Part shown: one piece after another, positions 17,288 through 58,653 of the stretch
How the letters are laid out: the number at the start of each line of letters is the position of its first letter
How positions within the stretch are numbered: the first letter of the stretch is position 1
IMG/VR virus record: IMGVR_UViG_3300047442_000001
Span: 1-64,000 of that record
Strand: one strand, 5' to 3'
DNA length: 64,000 nucleotides
DNA from: a virus
Notes under the pieces: model-generated
Told to the model about the DNA's origin: nothing
Seen by the model: only the letters and a program-made list of their open reading frames with translations
The model's database searches: none
Position numbers and translations under genes: made by a program

Positions 17288-20200
17288 TTACTTAAGTCGC
17301 GCCCAGTTGACCGCGAACTTCATCGAAGTCGTGATCTTCACGCCGTTGGGAAGATCGACTGGGTTCATCATGAAGGTCTCGACCGTGGTCGCGGTCACCG
17401 ACCTAGAGACTTCGGTATCGCGGACCTGGAACAGGTTCTCATCGTGGATCGACATCAGGAGCGACGTGCCCACACGGTCCAGCGTCTTCTTTCCTTTGTT
17501 CCACAGATCCGCGAGACCCATCTTCAGCACTTCAGCCGCGGTACATTGAATACGGAAATTGACGGCCTCACGTTCTGCGGCTTCTCTGATGCCGTTGATC
17601 TGCGACCACACGCCCGGGCAGTAACGGATGTGCCCCATGAGCGAGCGCACGTAGCCGTGCTGCCGGGCGAAGGACACGGTCTCTTCGATGTAGTCACCGA
17701 TCCCCGGGAACACTTCGCGAATCCACATCCGAATGAGGTCCGCGCACTCTTCAAGGGTGTACTTCATTCCACGAAGTTCCATCTGCGCCTGAAGTCCGCG
17801 TGGCGTGATCCCGAAGACGATACCGAAGTTGAGGTTCTTCGACGATTCGCGGATATCTGCGTACTTCTTTACGCCAGCTTTGCGGCCTTCGTAGATTTCG
17901 TCGTAGCTCATCGACCACGCTCGGGCGGCTCCGATGATGTGCGGGTCGCGACCTTCGATGAAGGCACGGAGAAGTTCACCGTCGCCGGAGAGCGCGGCCA
18001 GAACGCGGAGCTCGACTTGTTCATAGTCGGCCGAACTCAAGACGAAGCCATCCGGCGCGATGAAGCACTCGCGAATCAAGCGGCCGAGGTCAGCGCCACC
18101 TTTGTTGCGGACCGGGATGTTCTGAAGATTGATCGGATCTCCGGATGCCCAACGAAATGTTGCCGCGGTCGTCGGGCGGATACGTGTGTGAACTCTTCCT
18201 TCTTTGTCGACTAAGCGCGGGATCTTCTCCGCGTACGTGGTCACGAGCTTGTGCCGCGTTCTGTAGTCCAAGATCAACTGAACCGTCGACACGATGTCTT
18301 CGCGGTCGGAATACTTCAGCTTCAACCCTTCCAAGACTTTGTCGTCGGTCGAAGCACGCCTGCCGGACTTCGTCAACTTTTCCGATTGAAGGTCGAAGCT
18401 GAACGTGGGCTCGAAGTCCACTTTGTCTTCGTCCGTGTACGTGAGCTTCCGTTCACCGAAGAGAAGTGCCGCGACTTGGTCCCCAGACGCTGGATTGATC
18501 GGTCGTCCGCAGGCGCGGCGAAGTTGATGAAGGATCTCGTCGTTTTCGCGGCGCAGACGTTTCGCCAAGCGAAGGAGCTTGTCGCAGTCGACCAGCATCC
18601 CGTTGCGTTGGATCTCGGCGGCGGCGGGGATCACCGAGAGATCGATCCGGTAGGCACGACGAAGATCCATTGAATCGATCATCGCGGAGACCTTCGGATA
18701 GATCCTCAGGGTAACGTCTGCGTCACGCGCCGAGTACTGGATAGCGTCGTCGGACGGTATGTCGTCCAAGGTGGGCTCTGGCATCGGCCCAAGTAGCTCC
18801 TCCACAGGACCGCGAACGTCGTCATCCCAGCTCTTCCACCGATCGCGGATCGTTCTCGGTTTCCGTTCGTTGCCTTCGGTCTCGACTGAATCTTCGTCAG
18901 CGTCCGAGTCAGGATCGTCGAACGTGCCCTTCTCGATGTCTTCTTGCAGCTTCCGCAGGTAGCGTCCGATCTCCCATCCGGTACTGATCGACCAGACTCC
19001 GGTGTCCCAGTGGTATTTCGGTTGGCCCGCGCGCGCGGGCCACAGTCCGCCGTCGATGCACGCGGTACAGGCGTCTGTGGACTTTGAACAGGAGCAGAAC
19101 TTGGTCGTATGCTTCTTAGCTCCACTGATTCGACCAAACCCGAGGCACAGATCGCAATTCGGATCGGTGACACGTCGCGTCTCCGCAACTTTGCCGGTTC
19201 CACCGCAGACAGCGCACCGTTTCGCGTCTATGGCTCGTTTGATGTAGCTGAGTGCTAGTCTCCGTTCAGCGGGACGGATGACGTCGTCGTAGGACTGCAT
19301 CGGAACGCCGGCTAGCCGACGACCGTTGGGCTTCAGTCCAAGAGGGAGCAGCCGAAGACAGAAGAGCATGAGCATCGTGTCTTCGACGCGGGACCAGTCC
19401 ACTTCGATCCCAAGTTCCGACAGAATGGGCACGTCGTAGAGGGCATTATGAAAAATTACTCTCCCGGTCCCGGAAACGAGTCTACTGCTCTCCTGCAACG
19501 CAGCACTCTGCACGCTTCGCACGACCCGGGCTCGGCCGGCTTCGGATGCATAGGACAGCCCCCAGACATTTCCAATAACGCCTTCAGTATCAACGGCGAG
19601 CGTTCGCGGACGTAGGCGCGTGTTGCTTCTTTCAATAGATCGGCTGATGTCGGCATCTATGACTTCCTTGTAATCTGGGTGCGGGAACTCGTCGACAACG
19701 GAGAAGGGTTCCAAGTCTCCGTGAACGTAGAGGGAAAGTTGTTGGATGTCCCACCACACCAAGGGCGCGAGCTCGGAGTTGTGGAGTCCGGAAGCTGGGT
19801 GGTAGAGCGGAACGACTAGAATATTCTCCAGCCATCCTTGATCGCTTGGCCAGCGGTCTTCGGCTCCTTCGCCGACGCCACCACTGTCATCTCCGCTCCG
19901 CAGCCGCAGCGGCCCGGACCCGTTCCGATCGAGTGAGTCTCTCCCATCCGAAGGGAGTTGAACGTCCCCAAGTTTGGACACGCGTGCGTGTACTTCGGAT
20001 TCGACGGAACGCAGGTATGGATGTGCGTGCCCGGCGGAAGCCAGAAGAGCGTTTCTGAATTTTCGCTCGACTCCGTCCGCCGTCGACTGCCCCACTCGGG
20101 ACCGCTGTGCTCGTGGTACCACCGCATCCCGTTGCGATCGCAGGAGGCGTCGCACACGTGCTCCGAGCGGGAACGCGAGTCCGTGTGCCGCTTCCATAGT

Positions 20201-20554
20201 AACTTCAGAACCCAGAAGCCAGCGAGCAGCGACCCGGCCCACAGCACCAATCCACTTCGGCCGGACAGTAAGGATTTCTTCGATGATCTCGGGCTCGTCA
20301 CGGGCGATGTCCTCCTTCGACGGTGGTCTTTGTTTACCATTGACTACGGGTGGTTGGATTTTGACTAGGTTGGTGACGCGAATCGTATGACGTGGGAGCC
20401 GGGCGCGGTCCAACATCCGGTTGAGCTCCTTGCCCGACTTCCCGCGTTCACAGAACGGTTGTCCGGTGACGGTTTCCCAGTAGCCTGGAGCTTCGCCGAT
20501 GAGCAAGACTTCGGCGTCGGTGGGACCGTCACTTGGGACACGTCGCGGTTCCAC
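17288..20554 (-). CDS. family A DNA polymerase with 3'-5' exonuclease and N-terminal family-4-type UDG-like domain
   Basis: 1088 aa. UDG motifs GEAPG..GQPF and YHPAS. Exo motifs LAVDTEG, FHNALYDVPIL, YSARDADV. Pol motifs DYEQVELRVLA, KNLNFGIVFG, SIHDENL. Confidence 0.9.
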   Translation of the reverse strand: MEPRRVPSDGPTDAEVLLIGEAPGYWETVTGQPFCERGKSGKELNRMLDRARLPRHTIRVTNLVKIQPPVVNGKQRPPSKEDIARDEPEIIEEILTVRPKWIGAVGRVAARWLLGSEVTMEAAHGLAFPLGARVRRLLRSQRDAVVPRAQRSRVGQSTADGVERKFRNALLASAGHAHPYLRSVESEVHARVSKLGDVQLPSDGRDSLDRNGSGPLRLRSGDDSGGVGEGAEDRWPSDQGWLENILVVPLYHPASGLHNSELAPLVWWDIQQLSLYVHGDLEPFSVVDEFPHPDYKEVIDADISRSIERSNTRLRPRTLAVDTEGVIGNVWGLSYASEAGRARVVRSVQSAALQESSRLVSGTGRVIFHNALYDVPILSELGIEVDWSRVEDTMLMLFCLRLLPLGLKPNGRRLAGVPMQSYDDVIRPAERRLALSYIKRAIDAKRCAVCGGTGKVAETRRVTDPNCDLCLGFGRISGAKKHTTKFCSCSKSTDACTACIDGGLWPARAGQPKYHWDTGVWSISTGWEIGRYLRKLQEDIEKGTFDDPDSDADEDSVETEGNERKPRTIRDRWKSWDDDVRGPVEELLGPMPEPTLDDIPSDDAIQYSARDADVTLRIYPKVSAMIDSMDLRRAYRIDLSVIPAAAEIQRNGMLVDCDKLLRLAKRLRRENDEILHQLRRACGRPINPASGDQVAALLFGERKLTYTDEDKVDFEPTFSFDLQSEKLTKSGRRASTDDKVLEGLKLKYSDREDIVSTVQLILDYRTRHKLVTTYAEKIPRLVDKEGRVHTRIRPTTAATFRWASGDPINLQNIPVRNKGGADLGRLIRECFIAPDGFVLSSADYEQVELRVLAALSGDGELLRAFIEGRDPHIIGAARAWSMSYDEIYEGRKAGVKKYADIRESSKNLNFGIVFGITPRGLQAQMELRGMKYTLEECADLIRMWIREVFPGIGDYIEETVSFARQHGYVRSLMGHIRYCPGVWSQINGIREAAEREAVNFRIQCTAAEVLKMGLADLWNKGKKTLDRVGTSLLMSIHDENLFQVRDTEVSRSVTATTVETFMMNPVDLPNGVKITTSMKFAVNWARLK

Positions 20555-21548: not shown

Positions 21549-21955
21549 TTGGTCGCTACTCCCGAAGTGGTGAGGGCACGTGATAGATCGGAAAGGTGAC
21601 TGACCACGAGCGCGTAGATCGCGTCCATGGCGCGGTCCCATTCGGCTTCGACTTCAGCGACCGGCGCTTCGGTCTGAATCGAAGAGTCCTGGCCCACCGT
21701 GTTGACCAGAAGAATTTCAGTCACCGGGGTCAACTCTTTGAGACAACCGAACTGGTCGCGGCACAGCTCGTCCACGAAGACCGCGGCGGCGACGAAGCGG
21801 TCGTACCGATCCGAGTCCTTCGACATCTGCGCTGCGCACTGTGGCGTGTGGTCGACGTGGTGTCGCGTCAGGGACCGGATGAGGACCACGTTCATCGGAT
21901 TGATCGAAACCGGAGGACCGGCGAGCGGTCGAATGTGGAGAAGGTATTCAGTCAT
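21545..21955 (-). CDS. hypothetical protein
   Basis: 136-aa ORF; 4-nt overlap with upstream gene. Confidence 0.5.
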   Translation of the reverse strand: MTEYLLHIRPLAGPPVSINPMNVVLIRSLTRHHVDHTPQCAAQMSKDSDRYDRFVAAAVFVDELCRDQFGCLKELTPVTEILLVNTVGQDSSIQTEAPVAEVEAEWDRAMDAIYALVVSHLSDLSRALTTSGVATN

Positions 21956-22836
21956 CGTTGCTTCCTTCCTTGGTCGTCCGGCTTCCCGGACCGAGTTCTA
22001 TAGTGGTGTTCTTCCTTCGACGCTTTCACCGCGCGCGCGGCAAGAGTTCGACCAATACCGTCGACCTTCTGCCAGTCGGCTTCGGTCGCCAAGACCGCAC
22101 GTTCGACAGTGCCGAAGTGCTCCGCCGCAGCCATTGCTTTGTCCCAGCCGATCCCGTAGACGAGCTTGTGGATCACGTTCGCTGCGGTGGACGGCTTCAC
22201 CAACATCGAAGTCCCCGTCGAACGTTCGACGATCTCCACTTTGTCTTCGGTCAGTGACTCGTCGAAGCACTTCAGCAACTTGTGCGTGTCCCACGACCGC
22301 GAGAACATCCCGTGGAGCATCCCCACGAGCGACCCGGTTTCTTCGTTGGAGCCAGTGAAGAGAAAGTTGACTGAAGCTCCGACACTGAGTTCCGCGATCA
22401 TCGCCCAGAACGTTGAGTACAACATTCGCTGGGCTCGACCGAAGAACGCCTGAGCCCAGTAGCCTTCCTCGTAGAATTTGCGGTCATACTTGTGCTCGCG
22501 CCAGTAGCGGCCGAACTTCTTTTCTTGGTTCCGTGGCGTCCACACTTGAAGGTTGCCGGCGTAGTCGGAACGGACGCGGTCCTGGATGACGACGAAGATG
22601 ATGTCGTAGTCGTCGTGCATGTTGAGGAGCTGCTTCGCGTTGAAGCGGCCCGTTTCAATGGAGCCCAAGAAGTCGCCGAGGTGCTTGAGTTCGATACCGT
22701 ACCACGCCAAGCCGCGGGGCGAATGACCGACGAAACCGAAGTCGCCGCTGTCCAACATAGTGACGACGACCTTGTGCTGCGAAGGAATGTGGGCTCGGAT
22801 GGTGATCGAGCCGGCGCGTGGGTCGAGCAGGATCAT
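21952..22836 (-). CDS. ERCC4 (XPF/Mus81-like) nuclease with C-terminal helix-hairpin-helix
   Basis: Frame 21952..22926; ATG 22836 overlaps upstream stop (ATGA); DSGDFGF...IELKHLGDFLGSI..GR...Q; HhH WQKVDGIGRTLAARAV. Confidence 0.65.
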   Translation of the reverse strand: MILLDPRAGSITIRAHIPSQHKVVVTMLDSGDFGFVGHSPRGLAWYGIELKHLGDFLGSIETGRFNAKQLLNMHDDYDIIFVVIQDRVRSDYAGNLQVWTPRNQEKKFGRYWREHKYDRKFYEEGYWAQAFFGRAQRMLYSTFWAMIAELSVGASVNFLFTGSNEETGSLVGMLHGMFSRSWDTHKLLKCFDESLTEDKVEIVERSTGTSMLVKPSTAANVIHKLVYGIGWDKAMAAAEHFGTVERAVLATEADWQKVDGIGRTLAARAVKASKEEHHYRTRSGKPDDQGRKQR

Positions 22837-23216
22837 AGGTACCATGACTCCCATCGTCGATCCAACTGGTGCTTCCAAGGCAATAGTTCGACTCGTTGAA
22901 ACTGTCGTGCACGGCCGAATGGCCAATGCTTGATGAATAAACCGCGCTCTGCTAAAGATTTCAGTTGAATCAGCTGATCATAAATGACGGCCATCTGACA
23001 CGCGAGCACCGAGCGGAGTGCATCCTCCCTGAAACTCAGACTGTGAACTGCAAAGTCCGATACGACTCTGTAGCACCAATCCACGTATCTTCCTGTGCGA
23101 CTGTGCACGCGCACGATGAAATAGGCGGCCAAACGCGCTTCGTCAGATATGAAGGATGCAGGTCCCAACGTCAGCCTGAAGAATTCGCCGGTGCTCTCGG
23201 TACTGAGTAGGAGCAT
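22833..23216 (-). CDS. hypothetical protein (codon-usage outlier)
   Basis: 127-aa ORF coupled at both ends (TGATG, ATGA); uses TTA/CTA/AGA/ATA/TTT codons that are rare in neighbouring genes. Confidence 0.45.
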   Translation of the reverse strand: MLLLSTESTGEFFRLTLGPASFISDEARLAAYFIVRVHSRTGRYVDWCYRVVSDFAVHSLSFREDALRSVLACQMAVIYDQLIQLKSLAERGLFIKHWPFGRARQFQRVELLPWKHQLDRRWESWYL

Positions 23217-23653
23217 CAGTGCCCTCCCGATCTGATCTCACTGCGGACTTGCATCAGCAGCCGTCCGAGGTGGTTGTCGCCGATACCTCGGCACACGCCC
23301 CAGAAAGTGTCACCCCATTCGTTCCATTCGATCAGCTCCGCGTCTTCAGTCGACAGAAGAAGGTCACGAAGTCCGCGGTTGGCGAACTTCTTCCGGAGAA
23401 GCTCCAACATGACATCGAGCCGCACTTCGGTCAAGTCTGAACGAAGAGGCACAGCGCGTCCGTAGCGTTTCGCGGCTCCCGGAGTGATCCCGGACCGGAA
23501 GTGGGCTCGGTGGTCTTCGGACTCGGTCTTCGCGGCTTGGTACGCGTGCTCGACCGAAGCGTAGATGCCTCCGTCGAATTCGACCGTCACGGCTTGGAAG
23601 TTTGACAGAAACCGGTATCGGCCGTCGAAGCGTTCGATGGGTTTAGTCTTCAT
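23216..23653 (-). CDS. NADAR (YbiA/DUF1768-like) domain protein
   Basis: 145 aa; FLSNF, SVEHAYQAAK, KF..R.LRDLLLST, WGDTFWG, GDNHLGRLLMQVR match YbiA-family motifs. Confidence 0.8.
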   Translation of the reverse strand: MKTKPIERFDGRYRFLSNFQAVTVEFDGGIYASVEHAYQAAKTESEDHRAHFRSGITPGAAKRYGRAVPLRSDLTEVRLDVMLELLRKKFANRGLRDLLLSTEDAELIEWNEWGDTFWGVCRGIGDNHLGRLLMQVRSEIRSGGH

Positions 23654-24569
23654 CTTCGTCCTTCCCCTTCGACTTCGACTTCGGTTTCAGGTCGACCCAG
23701 TCTTCAGGCTCAGTCTTCACGAGTTGTTCGCTGCTGATCCAAGCGAACGGTCCCCACTTGCCCCAGTCGTCTTCTGTGTACACAGCTCTGTTGGTCTTCG
23801 CGTTGAGCCCGGAGCGGAGAACTTCCACTTGGAATTGGCCCTTCTTGTTGATCGAAGTTTCAAGGATCACCTGGACCGCGTAGTGGGTCTTCTGGTAGCC
23901 GTCCAGGATGCGACGCCCGGTTTTCTCGTTCTCGGTGACCGTGTTGCCGCGTTCGTCCACCTTTTTGACGGGGCCGTATTCGTCCTTGAGCTCGTGGACC
24001 CAGACCACTGACGCCGCGTACTTGTGACCTTCCCTCATCAGAGTTCCGATCTCCAGGTTCGCGTCGCCGCGCGCGTACTGGGGGATCTTCGACAGGCGCC
24101 CGAACTCGGAAATGAGACGAAGGTCGATGAGCGAAGAGGCGTCGTCTACCGAAATCAGACGGACGCCGCCCGGTCGAAGTGAAGACTCGAGCGCCATGTG
24201 ATAGTGCTCGATGAACTTGTTCCATTCGGCCATCCCTTCGCTCTTCGCCTTGGACATGGCCTCTTGGACTCCGGCGTCGGAGAGTTTCGCGTTCCATCCG
24301 ACAACTTTGGGGATGCGCAAAGGAAGCCGGACGATGGTCTTGGGCTCGTGGCTTCGGCTACCGCGCTCCCACGGGTTGGCGACGCCTTCGAGCCGGTCAT
24401 CTATGTCGAGGTGAACTTGCGGATGCGGCCCGGACAAAGGGAAGGTGGACTTGGCCGTCTTCGGTTCGCCTTGGACTGAATAGATGATCCTCGGGAGCTC
24501 GCGGCGGATTCGTTCAAACTTCCCCTTTTCGAGTCCGGGGATGGAAGGTACCGACTTCTCGTTCGCCAT
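23643..24569 (-). CDS. RecA-fold ATPase, AAA_24/Sak4-like (recombination/replication accessory)
   Basis: Frame 23643..24605; ATG 24569 after AGGAAGGAA; degenerate Walker A GEPKTAKST; Walker B-like VRLISVDD; basic/acidic tail KPKSKSKGKDEDED. Confidence 0.5.
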   Translation of the reverse strand: MANEKSVPSIPGLEKGKFERIRRELPRIIYSVQGEPKTAKSTFPLSGPHPQVHLDIDDRLEGVANPWERGSRSHEPKTIVRLPLRIPKVVGWNAKLSDAGVQEAMSKAKSEGMAEWNKFIEHYHMALESSLRPGGVRLISVDDASSLIDLRLISEFGRLSKIPQYARGDANLEIGTLMREGHKYAASVVWVHELKDEYGPVKKVDERGNTVTENEKTGRRILDGYQKTHYAVQVILETSINKKGQFQVEVLRSGLNAKTNRAVYTEDDWGKWGPFAWISSEQLVKTEPEDWVDLKPKSKSKGKDEDED

Positions 24570-24745
24570 TACCGTTCCTTCCTGTCGCGGCGGCCGAATT
24601 TCCATAGTGCGAGCGCTCCACCAATGAACGGGATACGTCCGATCCAGCCGCCCCGCTCTGGGTACTTAGCGAGGCTGTATAGCGTCACATCTATGACTAG
24701 AGTGGCAAAGATTCCGACTACTGCCGTCCATGCTCCTGCCGTCAT
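24569..24745 (-). CDS. small 2-TM membrane protein (holin-like topology)
   Basis: Frame 24569..24811; ATG 24745 lies 8 nt after GAGGAG; two hydrophobic helices plus basic tail KFGRRDRKER. Confidence 0.45.
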   Translation of the reverse strand: MTAGAWTAVVGIFATLVIDVTLYSLAKYPERGGWIGRIPFIGGALALWKFGRRDRKER

Positions 24746-28460: not shown

Positions 28461-30110
28461 CTACGTGGTTACCACCAGCGGCTCGGGAATCGACCGCACC
28501 CACACGAGTGCTTCGTTGAAACTCTTCGTTGCGTACTTGGTGGCGTATCGCGGCAGCGCCCACCGGGCGTGGTCGTCGATGACGATCACTTCGCCCCAGT
28601 CGTCAACCGAACGAACGTGCCGCCCGGCGGATTGAACTAAGGACTGCATCATCATCTTGTTTCCGACGTCCGGGTCGACTTCCTTCCTTCGTTTCATGAC
28701 CAGCGAAGTACCGTTGGGGAAGGGGAGCTTCGGAACTAATATCCAGCGGCACTGGTCGTCGGGGAAGTCTTCGCCTTGGGTGACTGAAGGCGACACCAAG
28801 ATCAGAGGCCCCTTCGGATCGCGGAACCGAAGCAGAGTTTCTTTGGTCTCGCGGCTGTCCGCATTTCCGATCATGTGTCCGCGGTACCGCGACAGCTCGA
28901 GGATACGCCGCGCGCGTTCGTAACTGACGCAGTGGATGATTCCCTTGCGGCCGAGTTCCAAGCGGCTTCGGATAGTAGCGTCGATGCGGCTGATCCACAT
29001 CCGTTCGCTGAACTCGTCCATGTGACGGTCGACGCGCACCTGAGGTTCAAGTAGAACGACGTAGACAGGTCGCCGTTGAACCGGGAACGAAGACGGGTAC
29101 TCGACGACTTCGCAACTCTGCACGGGAACGCCGAGACGGGGGAGTTCAAACTTGGACATTGTTGCGGAAAGGAATAGCACCGACTTGGCGCCGCGGTAAA
29201 GAAGCGACTCGCAACGGTCCGCCGGCCACACGGGCTCGAACTTCACCGCGTCGCGGCGGCGTACCCGGTCGAGCTCGGAGCTAACGACCCAGTCTTCATC
29301 TATGCCGCTGAGCTGAGTCAAGGACTCTTTGATCGAACGAAGGCTCGACGACAGTTTCGATACTTCCGAAGTGAGACCGGTCCGTGACACTTGACGCTTG
29401 AGCCGCTTCGAGAGGTCGACGACCAGGTCCAAAGACCGCCCCGCCCACTTCGTCCAGTCTTCGGTCGACGCCGCAACTGGGAGGACAGGAACGCCCACGG
29501 CACTTCGGAACTCGTCTGGATAAAGCGTCACGGTCAGGGCGTCGCACACCCGGTCCGCGGCGTCGTGGGATTCGTCGCACACGATGTGGTCAAAGTTCCC
29601 AAGGACCTCTTCGCTTCGCCCTGCGGCGACAGCTTTCCCGAGCGTCAGCCAAAAGGAATAGTTGGTCGACACGATCTTCGATTCCGCCGCCACCTTTACC
29701 GAGTCGAAGTAGTCGCAGCCGCCATTCAACATTGAACAGTAGATGCCACTGTGGCATGGCGCCCGGTCGACCGTCGTCCCGTGGGCTCGGTAGTGTTCTA
29801 GCCACCCTGCCGCTTTGACCGCGTTGCAGACGTAGTTCTGCTGACCGCGGACGTCGTAGAGCGAAGGGGCGAAGTCGTCGCGGTACACGTCTTCCAAGGA
29901 ACGATTGGAAGTAAGGATCAACGTGCGACCACCGTCCGAAGAGGCGAAATGAGAAGACCAAGCAAGTAGAGTTTTCCCCGAGCCCGTGGGAGCTAAGGTG
30001 AACTTGAAGCGGAAGTCAGACGCCTGAAGTCGGTACCAAGCGTCGAGCTGATCGCGGCGCCAGTCGATGAACTTGGCTGGGGCGCCCAGCGTTGAAGGAG
30101 AGAAGGTCAT
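28461..30110 (-). CDS. XPD/DinG-family (Rad3-like) DNA helicase with putative FeS-cluster Cys set
   Basis: 549 aa; Walker A APTGSGKT; DExH box IVCDESHD; four Cys between them (YVCN...APCHSGIYCSMLNGGCDYF); C-terminal GEDFPDD..ILVPKLPFP. Confidence 0.8.
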   Translation of the reverse strand: MTFSPSTLGAPAKFIDWRRDQLDAWYRLQASDFRFKFTLAPTGSGKTLLAWSSHFASSDGGRTLILTSNRSLEDVYRDDFAPSLYDVRGQQNYVCNAVKAAGWLEHYRAHGTTVDRAPCHSGIYCSMLNGGCDYFDSVKVAAESKIVSTNYSFWLTLGKAVAAGRSEEVLGNFDHIVCDESHDAADRVCDALTVTLYPDEFRSAVGVPVLPVAASTEDWTKWAGRSLDLVVDLSKRLKRQVSRTGLTSEVSKLSSSLRSIKESLTQLSGIDEDWVVSSELDRVRRRDAVKFEPVWPADRCESLLYRGAKSVLFLSATMSKFELPRLGVPVQSCEVVEYPSSFPVQRRPVYVVLLEPQVRVDRHMDEFSERMWISRIDATIRSRLELGRKGIIHCVSYERARRILELSRYRGHMIGNADSRETKETLLRFRDPKGPLILVSPSVTQGEDFPDDQCRWILVPKLPFPNGTSLVMKRRKEVDPDVGNKMMMQSLVQSAGRHVRSVDDWGEVIVIDDHARWALPRYATKYATKSFNEALVWVRSIPEPLVVTT

Positions 30111-30475
30111 ACTGCGGAATCGATCAACGTCAGCACGGCACGGAGTCTGTCGGCGACACCTTTAATCAGATCCCGCAACTCATCGTAGTGGTGCGCTTCT
30201 CGGACTTCGGAGATCTCCCTCTCGGTACGAGCACCGAAGAATTCGACTGTTGTCATTCCGTACACGTCAAGGATGCGAAGGAGCTGTGAGATCTTCAGCG
30301 ATCCGATGCGCTGACCAGTCTCGAAGGAGCTGATCGTCTTCTCACCAAGACTGGTCTGTGCCGCGAGCGCTTTCTGAGTTAAACCGCGGAGCTTGCGTAG
30401 CTCGCGTAGGCGCAAAACCACATCCACCGACAGTTGGAGCTCATGGGCTTCGTTGGATCGTTCAATCGTGGGCAT
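30107..30475 (-). CDS. XRE-family helix-turn-helix regulator
   Basis: 122 aa; LRGLTQKALAAQTSLGEKTISSFETGQR; stop overlaps helicase start (ATGA). Confidence 0.75.
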   Translation of the reverse strand: MPTIERSNEAHELQLSVDVVLRLRELRKLRGLTQKALAAQTSLGEKTISSFETGQRIGSLKISQLLRILDVYGMTTVEFFGARTEREISEVREAHHYDELRDLIKGVADRLRAVLTLIDSAV

Positions 30476-52657: not shown

Positions 52658-54817
52658 GTGTACTCAGACTTAATCACCGGACGCCGGATCGCCAACTACG
52701 AACGCGTCTACCGAACGCGCCTTCGCGAAGTCCCCATCCAACGAGTCCGTCAACTCGTTGACTACCTCAACGGTCACCGGGACCACACTTCCAAGAAGGA
52801 AGTCTGGGTCCGTCCTCCAGTGACTCCGGAGTTCCGCGCCTTCATCGACAACGAGCTGGCGATGTGTAAAGCCAACTTCCTCTACTTCGCGCGCCGCTAC
52901 TGCTTCCTTCAACTCGATGGTGGCGACGGCGGTTACGGTCTCTTCGTTCCTTGGGAGTCGCAACTTCTGCTTCTCACGAAGATGGCTTCAGCGGAGGAAC
53001 ATATGTGGTTTCGCCGCGATTCCGGCGATCACGCGTTCGACGCCCTTTGCTACTTCATTCACAAAGCTCGTCAACTTGGTTTCACGGCTCTGGTCCAACT
53101 TCTCCTCCTTCACCGAGCACTCTTCTACTCGGGGTCTCGAACGATCACCGTGTCGCTCGACGACCAAAAGACCCAGGACGTCCACAAACGTCTCAGTGAC
53201 GCGTACGACAAACTCCCGTACTGGATGAAAGTGCCGATCCACCGTCAGGACGTAGAGCGTGGAAAGTGGCTCACAAACGGTTCCAAGCTCACCCTCCAGG
53301 ACTTCAGTCAGGAGTCGGGACTTGGTCAAGGTGAACAGTGGGACAACGCTCACTTGACCGAAGTCGCTGCGGTCCCCGACGAATACTGCCGCGTTGCGAT
53401 TCAGAATCACTTCATGCCCACGATCGCGCGTTCGCTCCGCGGCATGGCCTTCATGGAGTCCACGGCCCAGGGAATGGGCAACTGGTGGCACACCGTGTGG
53501 CAACTGGTCGTCGCTGAAGGTTTTGGACGCTGGCGTCCGATGTTCTGTCCGTGGTACGCGCAGCCGACGAAGTGGTCGCGGCCCGACGTCCCTTCGTTCT
53601 GGTCCCCGGACGCCGACACCCAAGCCCACGCGGCCAAGATCGCGCTCACCAGCGAACGGTGGATGGGTCGAGTTTACACGCCGACGCGTGAACAGTTGTA
53701 CTGGTGGGAGACTGAACGGGCGACGTACCGCGACACGCAAGGGCTGGGGATCTTCTACACCGACTACCCGGCGACGCCGGAGGAGTCGTTCCAGCATAGC
53801 GGCTCGGGCGCGTTCAACTCAGAGATCATTCAACTCCTCACCGACCGCGTCATCAGAAAGCCCACCGCGTACGTTCTCGGGAGCGTCAACTACGAGTCTT
53901 CAGCGCGGCGGCTGGACCGAAACGTCATCACCTTCGGCGACCAGTCCCTTATCCCCGTTCACATGACTGAACGCGACGAGGTCGACCCACGCGGCTTGGT
54001 CTTGGTCTTCGATCCACCGCGCAAAGACGTCTACTACTCGGTCGGCGGCGACCCGGCCGAAGGTATTCCGGGGTGGCATCCGAAGACGCGGATGTCGACG
54101 CCGGACGAACTCGGTCGCGACAACGCGGCGTTATCAGGCTGGTACGTTGACCCGATGTCGGGGCTCACGATGCAGGCGGTCGAATTCGCCGGCCCCGTGA
54201 CCCCGCGCGAGTTCGCCCTTTACGCCGCGGTCGTTGGCCGGTGGTTCGGTGGGCTCTACGGAAACGAGCGCGGAGCCCCTTTGGTCATCGAGATATATCC
54301 AGGTCCCGGCGGTCAAACGTACGCGCGGCTCGCGTATGAGCTCGGGTATAGCCACTTCTTCCAGTGGTCGACGTTCAACGGCTCCGAAATAAAGTTCACG
54401 AACTCGTTTGGGTTCTACTCGAGCCAGAAGTCCGTCCGGGAAGCTTGGATCAAAGCCAAGGACTTGATTGAACACAAAGACACGCTACCGGTTCGTCCTC
54501 AGTCACCGTACGTACTCTACGAGATGAGCTACGCGACTTGGGACCCGGTCCGGATGCGCGGTCAGGCGATGGGAGGCTTTCACGACGATCGTATTTCCGC
54601 GACTTTGTTCGCGCTGTGGCAGCTCCACAGTTGGCACCTTCCGCAGCAGGCACCCGCGCGCCAAGTAGGACCGCAGCCGGGGCAACCGGTTGAAGTTCCC
54701 GCCGACAAGGTGGACTTCCAGCTCCGCGACATCGCCACTACGGTGGAACTGAACAAAGCCTACGACGCGTGGTGGCGAAGGAGCGTGGCGTACGGAAACG
54801 GGAACGGTGGATGGTGA
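52658..54817 (+). CDS. terL: terminase large subunit
   Basis: 719 aa; GTG start; Walker A-like FIHKARQLGFT; Walker B-like DNAHLTEVAAV; size and position ahead of the portal-like gene. Confidence 0.8.
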   Translation: MYSDLITGRRIANYERVYRTRLREVPIQRVRQLVDYLNGHRDHTSKKEVWVRPPVTPEFRAFIDNELAMCKANFLYFARRYCFLQLDGGDGGYGLFVPWESQLLLLTKMASAEEHMWFRRDSGDHAFDALCYFIHKARQLGFTALVQLLLLHRALFYSGSRTITVSLDDQKTQDVHKRLSDAYDKLPYWMKVPIHRQDVERGKWLTNGSKLTLQDFSQESGLGQGEQWDNAHLTEVAAVPDEYCRVAIQNHFMPTIARSLRGMAFMESTAQGMGNWWHTVWQLVVAEGFGRWRPMFCPWYAQPTKWSRPDVPSFWSPDADTQAHAAKIALTSERWMGRVYTPTREQLYWWETERATYRDTQGLGIFYTDYPATPEESFQHSGSGAFNSEIIQLLTDRVIRKPTAYVLGSVNYESSARRLDRNVITFGDQSLIPVHMTERDEVDPRGLVLVFDPPRKDVYYSVGGDPAEGIPGWHPKTRMSTPDELGRDNAALSGWYVDPMSGLTMQAVEFAGPVTPREFALYAAVVGRWFGGLYGNERGAPLVIEIYPGPGGQTYARLAYELGYSHFFQWSTFNGSEIKFTNSFGFYSSQKSVREAWIKAKDLIEHKDTLPVRPQSPYVLYEMSYATWDPVRMRGQAMGGFHDDRISATLFALWQLHSWHLPQQAPARQVGPQPGQPVEVPADKVDFQLRDIATTVELNKAYDAWWRRSVAYGNGNGGW

Positions 54818-56002: not shown

Positions 56003-56719
56003 ATGTCGAGACCCAACTGTGTAGTCATCGAAGGTGCTAACGGAATCGAATGGGGACCGCACGCTGCCGATTTCAATTCGGACGGCGTTCACGTGTGCCT
56101 CTACCACATTCCTTGCGTGCTCAAGGAGGGGACTACGTGGACTCTGGTCAATCTCCAAGTCCCACAGTTCGCTCTGTGCGACCGGTGTGGTGCTTCGGTC
56201 GAACGTCTGGTCGACGTCGACTTCAGCGGCGATCCCACGGTCCCCTTCTGCGCCTTCTGTCCTTCGATCGAGCGGTCCACGTTCCGGAGCGCCAACGCTC
56301 AAGTGTCCGACGCCGAAGCCACCGTCGTTGCCTTCAATCCCCGCACGGGCGACGTGGTGAACTTCGCGATGCGTAACGATCAGCCGATACCTTCAGACTT
56401 AGCCTCCAGCGGTTACGAACCCGTGCGACTGAAGCACTTCCGCCAAGTCGAACAGGTGGCTCGAGCGATGGGCGCACGGTCCGGTCGACAGGTGATTGCG
56501 GGGATCGAGACCGACAACCCGGAAGGAGTCGACGGCGACCGGTCCTTCGCTCGCGCGCGCCGCGAGCACGAAGCCCGAGTCGACGCGGCTAACCGTCAGG
56601 CCCTCGATGCTTCGCGTGAAGTTCGCCGCCGCGGAATCAAGCTTGATAAGCTCAGTTCCGAACAGCGATCAGAGATGGCCGTGGCCATCAATGAAGGCCG
56701 TGTAAGGCACAATCGCTGA
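56003..56719 (+). CDS. hypothetical protein
   Basis: 238-aa ORF. Confidence 0.55.
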   Translation: MSRPNCVVIEGANGIEWGPHAADFNSDGVHVCLYHIPCVLKEGTTWTLVNLQVPQFALCDRCGASVERLVDVDFSGDPTVPFCAFCPSIERSTFRSANAQVSDAEATVVAFNPRTGDVVNFAMRNDQPIPSDLASSGYEPVRLKHFRQVEQVARAMGARSGRQVIAGIETDNPEGVDGDRSFARARREHEARVDAANRQALDASREVRRRGIKLDKLSSEQRSEMAVAINEGRVRHNR

Positions 56720-58653
56720 TGGCGTTCGCCGAGTCGCCGCCGCAGCCTGAAGACTCCGGCTACGGTCCGCGCGGCCGGAACATGCTGGGCTTCTGCTCCG
56801 AGATGCTTCAGGAGGCGCAGAAAGTCGTTCGGTCGTGTCAAGGCTACTCGAACATCGTGCCGACGATGCAGGCCATCGCCGGAGCCAATACGTCTTCGGT
56901 CTTAGTCCCCACTGACCGTTCCCAGACGTTCGTCAACGAGATCGGCCGCAACCACGAAACGCTCCACGCCCACATGACCGACACCAAGCCTTCGGTCGAG
57001 TTCCGCACCAAGAACTCAGCCTACCAAGGTCACGCGAAGGACTTCGGCGGCATGTGGAACGTGTGGTACCTCAACCGGGCCATCGACCACAAATTCGGTT
57101 CGGTAGTCGACTACGCTTCGGTCGCCGGCTCCGGCTACGCTCATCAGCAGTGGAACAAAGCAATCAACGATTTGGACGTGGTGGCGTTCGACGGCCGGGA
57201 CTTCCTTCCTGTGAACCCCTTCGACGACACTGTTCAAAGTTGCTGGGGAGGCTTCCTTCGCCGCTTCGTTCCGCTGCCGTGGGCTCAGTCGATGTTCCCG
57301 CACATGGCGGCGCAGCTCGAGGCTGACGCTACCTACGAGCCGGCGACGGGGCTTCCTGAATTCGACCGCAACAAGGTGCTGTCGAAAGCTGACCGTGGTG
57401 CTCCCTTCTTCTCTTCTATGGCGAACACCGAAGCCGAAGAGCGAAGGAGCCAAGGAATCCGCGGAGTTCACCTGTACTGGTTCTACTTCAACGATCCCAC
57501 GGTCAACGATTCGTCCGACGTCATGTACGTCGGCGACTGGGAGAAGTCGGACAGTGGTTCCGGCTACGAAGCCCTGACCAACTATTCGTACCGTGTGAAG
57601 CCCAACCTTCCGGTGTACCCCAGAAAGCGGCTGGTGGTTCATTCAAAGACCGCCCTGTGCTACGACGGCCCGAATCACTACTGGCACGGGATGTTCCCCG
57701 TGTCCAAGTACACGATGATCCCGCTTCCGTGGTCATGGCTCGGGATGTCTCCGCTCTGGGACTGCCTTCCGCTTCAGGAGTCTCTTACCTTCGCTCTTCG
57801 CGTGCACGACGACCACGTTCGCAAGCTCACCCGTCCCCCGGTCCATGGCGGCCGCAATACGGCCGACGACGACCTTCGCAAACTTAGCGAGATGATCGCG
57901 CTGCCTGGTGCGTTCTGGAAGAACATGATGCCCGACGAGATCGGGATCGAAGTGATTCCTCCACTTGACGCTGCGGTCCCGTGGCAGATCGACTACTGCA
58001 CCCGCAAGATTGCCGAGCGCATGGGCGTGGATGCGGTCGGAGCGCTCATGGAAAAGCTCCAAGTTCCGGCCGCGGACACTTCGGACCAGTTGATGTTCGA
58101 AGGCGGCGCGTCGATGCGTCTGCGTTCGCGGCACTTGGAACGCTTCTACCGCGAACAGGGCCGCATGTTCGCGTTCAACTCGTCGCAGTTCTTCAGTGTG
58201 GGAAAGAAGTTTCGCATGATCGGTGGTGAGTCGCTCAAGCCGCAGGACTACATGGACGACACCACGTCCATCGTTCCACGTTCTGACGATGACGACCGCG
58301 ATCCGGTCGAAATCGGGACCGAGTGGGCGGATCAGTTTGATTTCTACGTTGCACAGTCTTCGCTGCTTCGCTCCGCTGCCTTAGCCGAAGTCGCAACCGC
58401 AATGGCGGCAATCCGTCTGGGCGCCATCGACCGGAGAACGTTCCTTGAGAAGCTTGACTACCAGAACGTGGAAGAGATCATGACTCGCGTCCGTGCCGAG
58501 ATGCAGGAGAAGGTAGAGATGGCCGCCGCTGTCAAAGGTGCCGGCGACCAAGTCGGTGGCATCAGACCGCTGGGCGGTGACCCGCGCGGACGCGACGCCA
58601 CGGGCACCGGAGCCCCGAGCCTCGGTGGCGACGGCTACGTTCGCAACCAGTGA
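56719..58653 (+). CDS. portal protein (putative)
   Basis: 644 aa; TGATG coupling; size and position in the terL block; no motif-level proof. Confidence 0.5.
   Translation: MAFAESPPQPEDSGYGPRGRNMLGFCSEMLQEAQKVVRSCQGYSNIVPTMQAIAGANTSSVLVPTDRSQTFVNEIGRNHETLHAHMTDTKPSVEFRTKNSAYQGHAKDFGGMWNVWYLNRAIDHKFGSVVDYASVAGSGYAHQQWNKAINDLDVVAFDGRDFLPVNPFDDTVQSCWGGFLRRFVPLPWAQSMFPHMAAQLEADATYEPATGLPEFDRNKVLSKADRGAPFFSSMANTEAEERRSQGIRGVHLYWFYFNDPTVNDSSDVMYVGDWEKSDSGSGYEALTNYSYRVKPNLPVYPRKRLVVHSKTALCYDGPNHYWHGMFPVSKYTMIPLPWSWLGMSPLWDCLPLQESLTFALRVHDDHVRKLTRPPVHGGRNTADDDLRKLSEMIALPGAFWKNMMPDEIGIEVIPPLDAAVPWQIDYCTRKIAERMGVDAVGALMEKLQVPAADTSDQLMFEGGASMRLRSRHLERFYREQGRMFAFNSSQFFSVGKKFRMIGGESLKPQDYMDDTTSIVPRSDDDDRDPVEIGTEWADQFDFYVAQSSLLRSAALAEVATAMAAIRLGAIDRRTFLEKLDYQNVEEIMTRVRAEMQEKVEMAAAVKGAGDQVGGIRPLGGDPRGRDATGTGAPSLGGDGYVRNQ

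Follow-up and report, generated by a model that had tools for sequence, protein, structure and literature searches.

A NADAR gene in a tailed phage

The window analysed here is a stretch of 64,000 nucleotides, positions 1 to 64,000 of IMG/VR virus record IMGVR_UViG_3300047442_000001, and represents a tailed phage with genes for a terminase large subunit, a portal protein and structural proteins. On its minus strand, at positions 23216..23653, an ATG-to-TGA open reading frame (ORF) encodes a NADAR-domain protein of 145 residues, assigned through Pfam PF08719, AlphaFold2 and Foldseek. We propose that this protein, hereafter the window NADAR, is related to AdfN^Bas32, a phage enzyme that overcomes the DarTG1 defense system. 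The gene call of the source assembly, a 66,225-nucleotide contig of Logan SRR26077936, gives the identical NADAR ORF, 23216-23653. Direct reading of the sequence places a Shine-Dalgarno-like GGGGAAGGA at 23659..23667 on the minus strand; it ends 5 nucleotides upstream of the NADAR ATG and sits inside the 3' end of the gene for a 320-residue protein just upstream, which the NADAR start overlaps by 11 nucleotides. At the other end, the NADAR stop codon overlaps the ATG of a downstream 127-residue ORF (TGATG). With a strong Shine-Dalgarno sequence and start and stop overlaps with both neighbors, the gene is built for translation. Its GC content and its GC content at third codon positions (GC3) are typical of the genome, which argues against a very recent import.

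A first-pass annotation of this DNA, made from the sequence alone, had described a 145-residue product carrying YbiA/NADAR motifs, and all of the motifs were found: F15-L-S-N-F19, E35-HAYQAA-K42 and, toward the C-terminus, W118-G119 ... G125-D-N127-H-L129-G130-RL-L133-M134-Q-V136-R137. Only the spacing in the last motif, quoted as "WG....G", needed correction; five residues separate WG from G125, one more than quoted. At levels well beyond chance, the protein matches Pfam PF08719 (DUF1768) over residues 12-141 with 75.8 bits (E 6e-21; gathering score 35.1), phrog_1017 with E 7.8e-39 and the sequence of the Escherichia coli YbiA structure 2b3w with E 2e-17. Its score against TIGR02464 ("riboflavin biosynthesis intermediates N-glycosidase") is 68.1 bits, under the curated cut-off of 73.7, and its score against NF053876, the DS-32 NADAR anti-phage profile, is 41 bits at a cut-off of 240. 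PADLOC returned just a weak PDC-M42C match for the protein (18.2 bits) and no DarG match.

The predicted fold agrees with the Pfam assignment, and the NADAR identity proposed earlier therefore holds at both levels. AlphaFold2, supplied with 55 homologues, gave a model with a mean predicted local distance difference test score (pLDDT) of 96.7 and a predicted template modeling score of 0.90, and Foldseek matched it to NADAR structures alone. The top match is E. coli YbiA 2B3W (template modeling (TM) score 0.88, E 8e-11, root-mean-square deviation 2.0 Å, probability 1.00), followed by the ADP-ribose-bound NADAR of Phytophthora nicotianae (PnNADAR), 8BAU (TM 0.82, E 7e-7, probability 1.00). The match to the Geobacter lovleyi DarG1 structure 8BAT is weak (TM 0.51, E 0.5). 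The model predicts a YbiA-like alpha-helical core with flanking small beta-sheets.

Relatives of the window NADAR

By tblastn, 460 deposited phage genomes contain homologues of the window NADAR. The best phage matches, at 57-58% identity, are all from T5-like Markadamsvirinae and include Escherichia phage IrisVonRoten, whose bas32_00xx locus tags show it to be the BASEL collection phage Bas32; through the same tags bas32_0066 (QXV80247.1) was fixed as AdfN^Bas32. By BLASTP the window NADAR is 58% identical to AdfN^Bas32 over 140 residues (E 1e-52), 40% identical to E. coli YbiA (E 2e-24) and 32% identical to T4 gp30.3 (AdfN^T4) over 53 residues (E 0.003); in a multiple alignment the identity to gp30.3 is 15%.

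This alignment combined reference NADARs with the 120 nearest proteins in the database, which are 46-63% identical and largely of metagenomic origin, and the clade was placed by ranking pairwise identities (n=123). By identity to the window NADAR, AdfN^Bas32 comes 42nd of the 123, within the homologue set, and the last three ranks are taken by YbiA, PnNADAR and T4 AdfN. Each of the 120 closest homologues resembles AdfN^Bas32 more than it does YbiA. Because of this ranking and the uniform affinity of the homologues, we assign the window NADAR, on sequence grounds, to an AdfN^Bas32-like clade of short single-domain NADARs.

Scanning GTDB genomes added 528 members of the clade in Bryobacterales, Planctomycetota, Myxococcota, Streptomyces and other bacteria, together with a few in archaeal metagenome-assembled genomes (MAGs) at 48-51% identity. 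AdfN^Bas32 has been reported to group with archaeal NADARs (Johannesman et al. 2025, PMC11825919), and the archaeal MAG members agree with that grouping. Among the genes around 80 cellular NADAR loci, no neighbor cluster occurred in more than 9 loci and no ADP-ribosyltransferase (ART) partner was found. Two Bryobacterales MAG chromosomes, OZ244625.1 and OZ241991.1 (our loci L013, L024, L025, L027 and L044), carry up to four NADARs of the clade per genome, and these copies share a neighbor of ~334 residues and an upstream repeat, suggestive of a NADAR-carrying mobile element present in several copies. Phage records with homologues of the clade include ~125 from Streptomyces phages and 88 from Vibrio phages. 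In databases the clade is named inconsistently and, for the most part, misleadingly ("swarming motility protein YbiA", "GTP cyclohydrolase II", "N-glycosidase", "glycosylase", "DUF1768", "hypothetical"); among the phage records, a single one uses "antitoxin-like enzyme".

Active-site residues

PnNADAR contacts ADP-ribose through E43, K50, K75, R79, W89, R93, E125, D130 and W133, and mutagenesis of E. coli C7 DarG1 showed that the equivalents of E43, K50 and E125 are required (Schuller et al. 2023, PMC11543638). The C7 residues E88 and K95, which correspond to PnNADAR E43 and K50, are needed for positioning of ADP-ribose and for hydrolysis (PMC11543638). In SCO5665, a NADAR of Streptomyces coelicolor, the E125 equivalent is essential for activity on both guanine-linked ADP-ribose (G-ADPr) and cytosine-linked ADP-ribose (C-ADPr) (Mikolcevic et al. 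2026). The equivalents of the nine PnNADAR contacts in the window NADAR are, in the same order, E35, K42, K62, R66, L74, R78, E109, D115 and W118, of which E35, K42, E109 and D115 are invariant in 120/120 homologues. As judged from this alignment, the window NADAR keeps all catalytic residues validated by mutagenesis, and E109 sets it with the NADARs of Glu type (the YbiA and "NADAR" families).

Two positions depart from the clade. L74 (codon TTG, 23432-23434, minus strand) is unique among the 120 homologues, 118 of which have Trp there, and aligns with W89 of PnNADAR, a contact to the pyrophosphate. W110 (codon TGG, 23324-23326, minus strand) is likewise unique, with Gly in 107/120, and directly follows the catalytic Glu, E109. 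Each of the two codons is one nucleotide from the consensus codon. The pair could represent a compensatory relocation of a Trp within the ADP-ribose pocket, a mildly impaired enzyme or an altered specificity.

A variable slot in the replication block

The window NADAR lies within a long co-directional minus-strand block that also encodes a DinG/XPD-like helicase, a helix-turn-helix (HTH) protein, a probable ERCC4/XPF-type nuclease and a family-A DNA polymerase. The presence of the polymerase, the helicase and the ERCC4-like gene in the same block bears out the earlier placement of the gene in a replication module. The first-pass annotation had named the neighbors as nucleases, an ATPase and the polymerase. 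The polymerase is clearly present, and a nuclease is weakly supported by the ERCC4-like gene (22.9 bits against a cut-off of 24); the ATPase, probably the 320-residue gene, has no family or PDB match, and the 239-residue protein (g239) taken for a nuclease has no Pfam, PHROG or PDB match.

The gene upstream of the NADAR (23643..24605, minus strand) encodes the 320-residue protein (308 residues in the assembly's own call), which is conserved in related phages and matched nothing in Pfam, PHROG or the PDB. Downstream, beyond the 127-residue ORF, the probable ERCC4/XPF-type nuclease gene occupies 21952..22926 on the minus strand and encodes a C-terminal helix-hairpin-helix (HhH) region. The nuclease call is weakly supported, by the sub-threshold Pfam ERCC4 score and by matches to the XPF/Hef HhH at E 0.01-0.03; its homologues in two of the related contigs below, L010 and L012, have precomputed ERCC4 hits.

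Four related contigs (L009-L012; n=4) were found through the polymerase, to which theirs are 40-56% identical. The helicase, g276, g239, the 320-residue gene, the ERCC4-like gene, g136 and PolA are collinear in these contigs where the contig extends; by tblastn the 320-residue gene is 38-62% identical and collinear in all four, and the ERCC4-like gene is 36-45% identical. Neither the NADAR nor the 127-residue ORF has a match in any of them, even at E 10. The segment between the 320-residue gene and the ERCC4-like gene (22833-23642, minus strand) is thus a hypervariable slot, with equivalents at L009:5258-5617, L010:3463-4371, L011:7645-8115 and L012:7298-7750. Its contents differ in each related contig, encoding 119 residues in L009, 112, 109 and 85 in L010, 156 in L011 and 150 in L012, all free of family matches; the 119-residue gene of L009 and the 109-residue gene of L010 are the sole related pair, and weakly so (31%, E 2e-8). 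NADAR homologues on other phage-like contigs have no flanking gene in common with the window. Because the flanks are kept in four relatives that have no NADAR, and because no flanks are shared with NADARs elsewhere, we conclude that the NADAR gene is a single-gene accessory insertion in the slot.

The second occupant of the slot is the 127-residue ORF (22833..23216, minus strand). It is an ORFan, with no homologue among 5.8 billion proteins and no Pfam, PHROG or PADLOC match. Its GC content is 52% and its GC3 0.58, against a GC3 of 0.70-0.75 in its neighbors, and a single-sequence AlphaFold2 model is all-helical and of low confidence (pLDDT 40.7). The ORF may be foreign DNA, or possibly is not a real gene. 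Searches of the NADAR flanks (the 320-residue protein, the ORFan and the ERCC4-like nuclease) for ART or PADLOC matches found none, and a Pfam scan of 10 more minus-strand ORFs for macrodomain, ART and riboflavin genes had zero matches. The window NADAR thus appears to be an orphan, with no adjacent DarT or other ART detected in its flanks.

Comparison with known NADAR proteins

The closest functionally characterized relative is AdfN^Bas32 of Escherichia phage IrisVonRoten/Bas32, which has counterparts in other Markadamsvirinae. Both proteins are minimal NADAR cores of ~145-150 residues with no N-terminal extension, both are Glu-type with SNF, EHA.QA.K and E.N.WGD..WG motifs, and both are encoded by orphan genes in the early or replication region of a lytic phage. 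They differ in that the window represents an unrelated phage lineage (~60% GC, 66 kb, a UDG-PolA fusion and no DNA similarity) with other neighboring genes, and in that L74 and W110 of the window NADAR correspond to the consensus W and G in AdfN^Bas32. The function is proven for AdfN^Bas32 and predicted for the window NADAR.

E. coli YbiA, the top structural match, resembles the window NADAR in its Glu at the family-defining position and in its N-terminal beta-hairpin with a helical core. It is, however, a chromosomal protein encoded in the LexA-controlled dinG-ybiB region and has N-glycosidase activity on riboflavin intermediates; although it removes G-ADPr in vitro, it leaves cells unprotected from DarT1. 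The window NADAR instead falls under the TIGR02464 cut-off and clusters with AdfN^Bas32, and, with no rib gene among 30 window proteins scanned, it has neither the ribA/ribD fusion or association nor the dinG-ybiB SOS operon setting that are traits of the YbiA family. The stand-alone NADARs of P. nicotianae (8BAU) and S. coelicolor (SCO5665) resemble it in their Glu-type active site, with ADP-ribose contact positions that map one to one; these are cellular proteins, 24-31% identical to the window NADAR, in which extra N-terminal helices and loops form an electropositive tunnel.

The DarG1 antitoxins (BC4488-type; E. coli C7, G. lovleyi 8BAT) are predicted to share with the window NADAR the hydrolysis of guanine-N2-linked ADP-ribose on single-stranded DNA (ssDNA), and C7 E88 and K95 correspond to its E35 and K42. 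DarG1, however, has a catalytic Asp (C7 D171) in place of E109, a DNA-binding N-terminal beta-beta-alpha extension where the window NADAR starts at the core (FLSNF from residue 15), and an adjoining darT1, where none was detected beside the window NADAR. The structural similarity to 8BAT is just TM 0.51 and PADLOC gave no DarG match. A DarG1 antitoxin identity was ruled out on the Glu in place of Asp, the absent N-terminal extension and the absent darT1. AdfN^T4 (gp30.3) is also an orphan NADAR encoded by a phage and overcomes DarTG1 through enzymatic de-ADP-ribosylation, but it has His at the family-defining position, needs the T-even infection context for full activity, does not remove C-ADPr and is only marginally similar to the window NADAR (15%; BLASTP E 0.003). 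A T4-type AdfN identity was likewise rejected, given the Glu in place of His and the negligible similarity, and a DS-32 defense NADAR was rejected on its profile score (41 against 240 bits).

A candidate counter-defense enzyme

NADARs hydrolyze the N-glycosidic bond that links ADP-ribose to guanine-N2, on both ssDNA and RNA, a reaction described by Schuller et al. (Mol Cell 2023, PMC11543638). All NADARs so far assayed in the literature show guanine-ADPr glycohydrolase activity, and all were inactive on thymidine-linked ADP-ribose (T-ADPr) or against DarTG2 and on phosphate-linked ADP-ribose. All four NADAR subtypes are active and show specificity in cells (Cihlova 2024). AdfN^Bas32 alone neutralizes DarT1 in E. 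coli, without other phage factors (Johannesman et al., Nat Commun 2025, PMC11825919); it brings RB69, T5 and Bas25 to full titer on DarTG1 hosts and has no effect on DarTG2 (PMC11825919). A HIDEN-SEQ preprint confirms adfN. Phage NADARs as anti-DarTG1 factors have thus already been published (2023-2025); what is new here is the host phage lineage, the variable slot and the L74/W110 variant, and not the mechanism.

The evidence assembled here concerns the family, the fold, the catalytic residues, the kinship to a validated anti-DarTG1 factor and the accessory slot. Because of the 58% identity to AdfN^Bas32, the retained catalytic residues and the variable accessory slot, we consider it likely, with a probability of about 60%, that the window NADAR is an AdfN^Bas32-like enzyme that reverses DarT1-type (or other guanine-directed) ADP-ribosylation of phage ssDNA. 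These points lend support to the anti-DarT role suggested for the gene from its sequence motifs. DarT2, which had been considered alongside DarT1, is not expected as a target, since the assayed NADARs were all inactive on T-ADPr or DarTG2; the expected target is guanine, and possibly also cytosine, ADP-ribosylation. Accessory insertion in a variable slot is, moreover, the usual signature of counter-defense cargo.

Under this proposal the window NADAR would belong to the AdfN^Bas32-like clade as a minimal glycohydrolase with a single domain of NADAR fold, and during infection its gene would be expressed together with those for replication. It would cleave the N-glycosidic bond between ADP-ribose and the nucleobase on phage ssDNA, guanine-N2 being the established substrate, and would thereby erase the replication-blocking marks of a host DarT1-type (or other guanine-directed) ADP-ribosyltransferase, allowing replication to proceed. 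Such an "orphan antitoxin" would need the modified base alone, with no toxin partner and no contact with a toxin.

Several points weigh against the proposal. We infer the activity of the window NADAR as well as its target in vivo and the host system that it counters, and the L74/W110 pair could mean that its activity or specificity differs from that of AdfN^Bas32. E. coli YbiA and T4 gp30.3 are both active on G-ADPr in vitro, yet neither rescues uninfected cells from DarT1, so that hydrolysis in vitro would be no guarantee of protection. Cellular genomes that show no obvious toxin partner also contain many members of the clade, whose ancestral role may not have been directed against DarT.

If the proposal holds, AdfN^Bas32-type counter-defense by an orphan antitoxin would extend from T5-like coliphages to a deeply divergent environmental phage of ~60% GC, in support of the view that reversing DNA ADP-ribosylation is a widespread phage need. 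The current understanding of NADAR function is unchanged. The analysis marks the accessory slot between the 320-residue gene and the ERCC4-like nuclease gene, in which the unrelated small genes of the sister phages are reasonable anti-defense candidates, and the natural L74/W110 variant offers a test of the share of the conserved Trp in NADAR catalysis and specificity.

Alternative interpretations

The same chemistry might serve against another target, a non-DarT transferase of a ~60% GC host that forms C-ADPr or G-ADPr on DNA or RNA; candidate writers are pierisin/ScARP-like, YarT-like and secreted Rhs-type ARTs or an undescribed ART-based defense. The Glu-type catalytic residue E109 fits such a role, since Glu-type enzymes belonging to the NADAR and the YbiA family remove C-ADPr as well as G-ADPr, from DNA and from RNA (PMC12945103; RNA activity, PMC11833690) whereas the Asp-type DarG1 and His-type T4 enzymes remove G-ADPr only (PMC12945103). 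It is also in keeping with a myxobacterial YbiA-type NADAR that is the antitoxin of the non-DarT ART YarT, with the frequency of the clade in genomes and phages of Acidobacteriota, Planctomycetota, Myxococcota and Streptomyces, and with the unique L74/W110 pair, which might reflect an altered substrate pocket. We nevertheless regard a different target as unlikely, although it deserves serious consideration: the functional data for the clade, obtained with AdfN^Bas32, concern DarT1 and guanine only, C-ADPr has no known role in phage defense, and no ART gene was found beside the cellular homologues. It is more speculative, and rather improbable, that L74/W110 marks a pocket re-shaped for a non-DarT1 modification (C-ADPr or RNA base ADP-ribosylation) and directed against an undescribed ART defense of a non-enterobacterial host, possibly Acidobacteriota- or Planctomycetota-like. 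The two substitutions could alternatively indicate a weakened or non-catalytic protein, in which W74L cripples ADP-ribose binding and the gene is either in decay or works through binding in place of hydrolysis. Each is unique among the 120 homologues and one nucleotide from consensus, and another phage NADAR needs no enzymatic activity (Johannesman et al. 2025, PMC11825919). Decay, however, sits poorly with an intact, full-length ORF preceded by a strong Shine-Dalgarno sequence, with the retention of all catalytic residues validated by mutagenesis and with a model pLDDT of 96.7; two simultaneous changes in one pocket that involve a Trp look more like a compensated swap, and W89 was never shown to be essential. 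We accordingly attach little weight to a loss of function.

A role as a YbiA-like housekeeping or auxiliary metabolic N-glycosidase, which destroys reactive intermediates of the riboflavin pathway and has no part in defense, would account for E. coli YbiA being the top match among solved structures (40% identity), for the TIGR02464 score of 68.1 bits and for the many homologues automatically named "N-glycosidase YbiA" or "ribA/ribD-fused". These names are automatic transfers, the score is below the curated 73.7, and all 120 homologues are nearer AdfN^Bas32 than YbiA. A single-domain protein whose gene occupies a variable slot within a replication module, with no rib gene among 30 scanned window proteins, is unlike a housekeeping enzyme, and we give the riboflavin role slight credence. 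The coupling of the NADAR stop to the start of the ORFan (TGATG) raises the further idea of a self-immunity pair, in which the NADAR would be the antitoxin of an ART encoded by the ORFan, by analogy with YbiA-YarT; a YbiA upstream of a small ART does occur in myxobacteria, and the two genes are jointly absent from the related phages. Start and stop overlaps are, however, the norm across this operon, the ORFan is without homologues and matched no ART, Pfam or PADLOC entry, its low-confidence model is all-helical where the ART fold is beta-rich, and NADAR homologues elsewhere have no conserved partner. A self-immunity pair is therefore very improbable, and an AdfN^Bas32-like counter-defense enzyme remains our preferred reading of the locus.

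Other features of the phage genome

The phage has a GC content of about 60% (0.60) and a genome of 66 kb. Its structural genes lie on the plus strand at ~50-64 kb and 0-16 kb, and include those for the terminase large subunit (52658-54817) and the portal protein (56719-58653); the replication and early genes occupy the minus strand at ~16-50 kb. A scan of ~40 larger ORFs gave family matches just for the polymerase, the helicase, the HTH protein, the NADAR, the terminase, the portal and a few structural proteins, with no integrase among the window ORFs scanned. A tRNA search of the window found none, and a promoter and terminator scan of 20-32 kb found nothing above shuffled expectation. Megablast of the 12 kb around the NADAR gene against 50,697 phage records gave no match, IMG/VR scans with the 320-residue neighbor, the polymerase and the terminase turned up no close relative, and a scan of GTDB genomes with the polymerase-family alignment yielded no relative either.

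The DinG/XPD-like superfamily-2 helicase gene (28461..30110, minus strand; Pfam Helicase_C_2, 57.8 bits) lies 4.8 kb from the NADAR gene as part of the phage replication module and is collinear and conserved in L009, L011 and L012. The HTH protein gene of the replication block is at 30107-30475. The family-A DNA polymerase gene (17288..20554, minus strand; Pfam DNA_pol_A 258.9 bits; PHROG DNA polymerase) also encodes an N-terminal family-4-type uracil-DNA glycosylase (UDG) domain (71.9 bits), and the polymerase homologues, at 40-56% identity, have the same UDG-PolA fusion. The GEAPG motif (residues 20-24) and the HPAAGLHNP motif are invariant in 11 homologues, and their conservation supports the long GTG start at 20554; the UDG domain is truncated in the assembly's call (1042 residues) and in the database entry (823 residues). 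Residues C447, C450, C496 and C499 are also invariant in the 11 homologues and probably form a zinc-finger insert. Two polymerase relatives, P0126 and P0133, contain intein/LAGLIDADG domains within the same polymerase.

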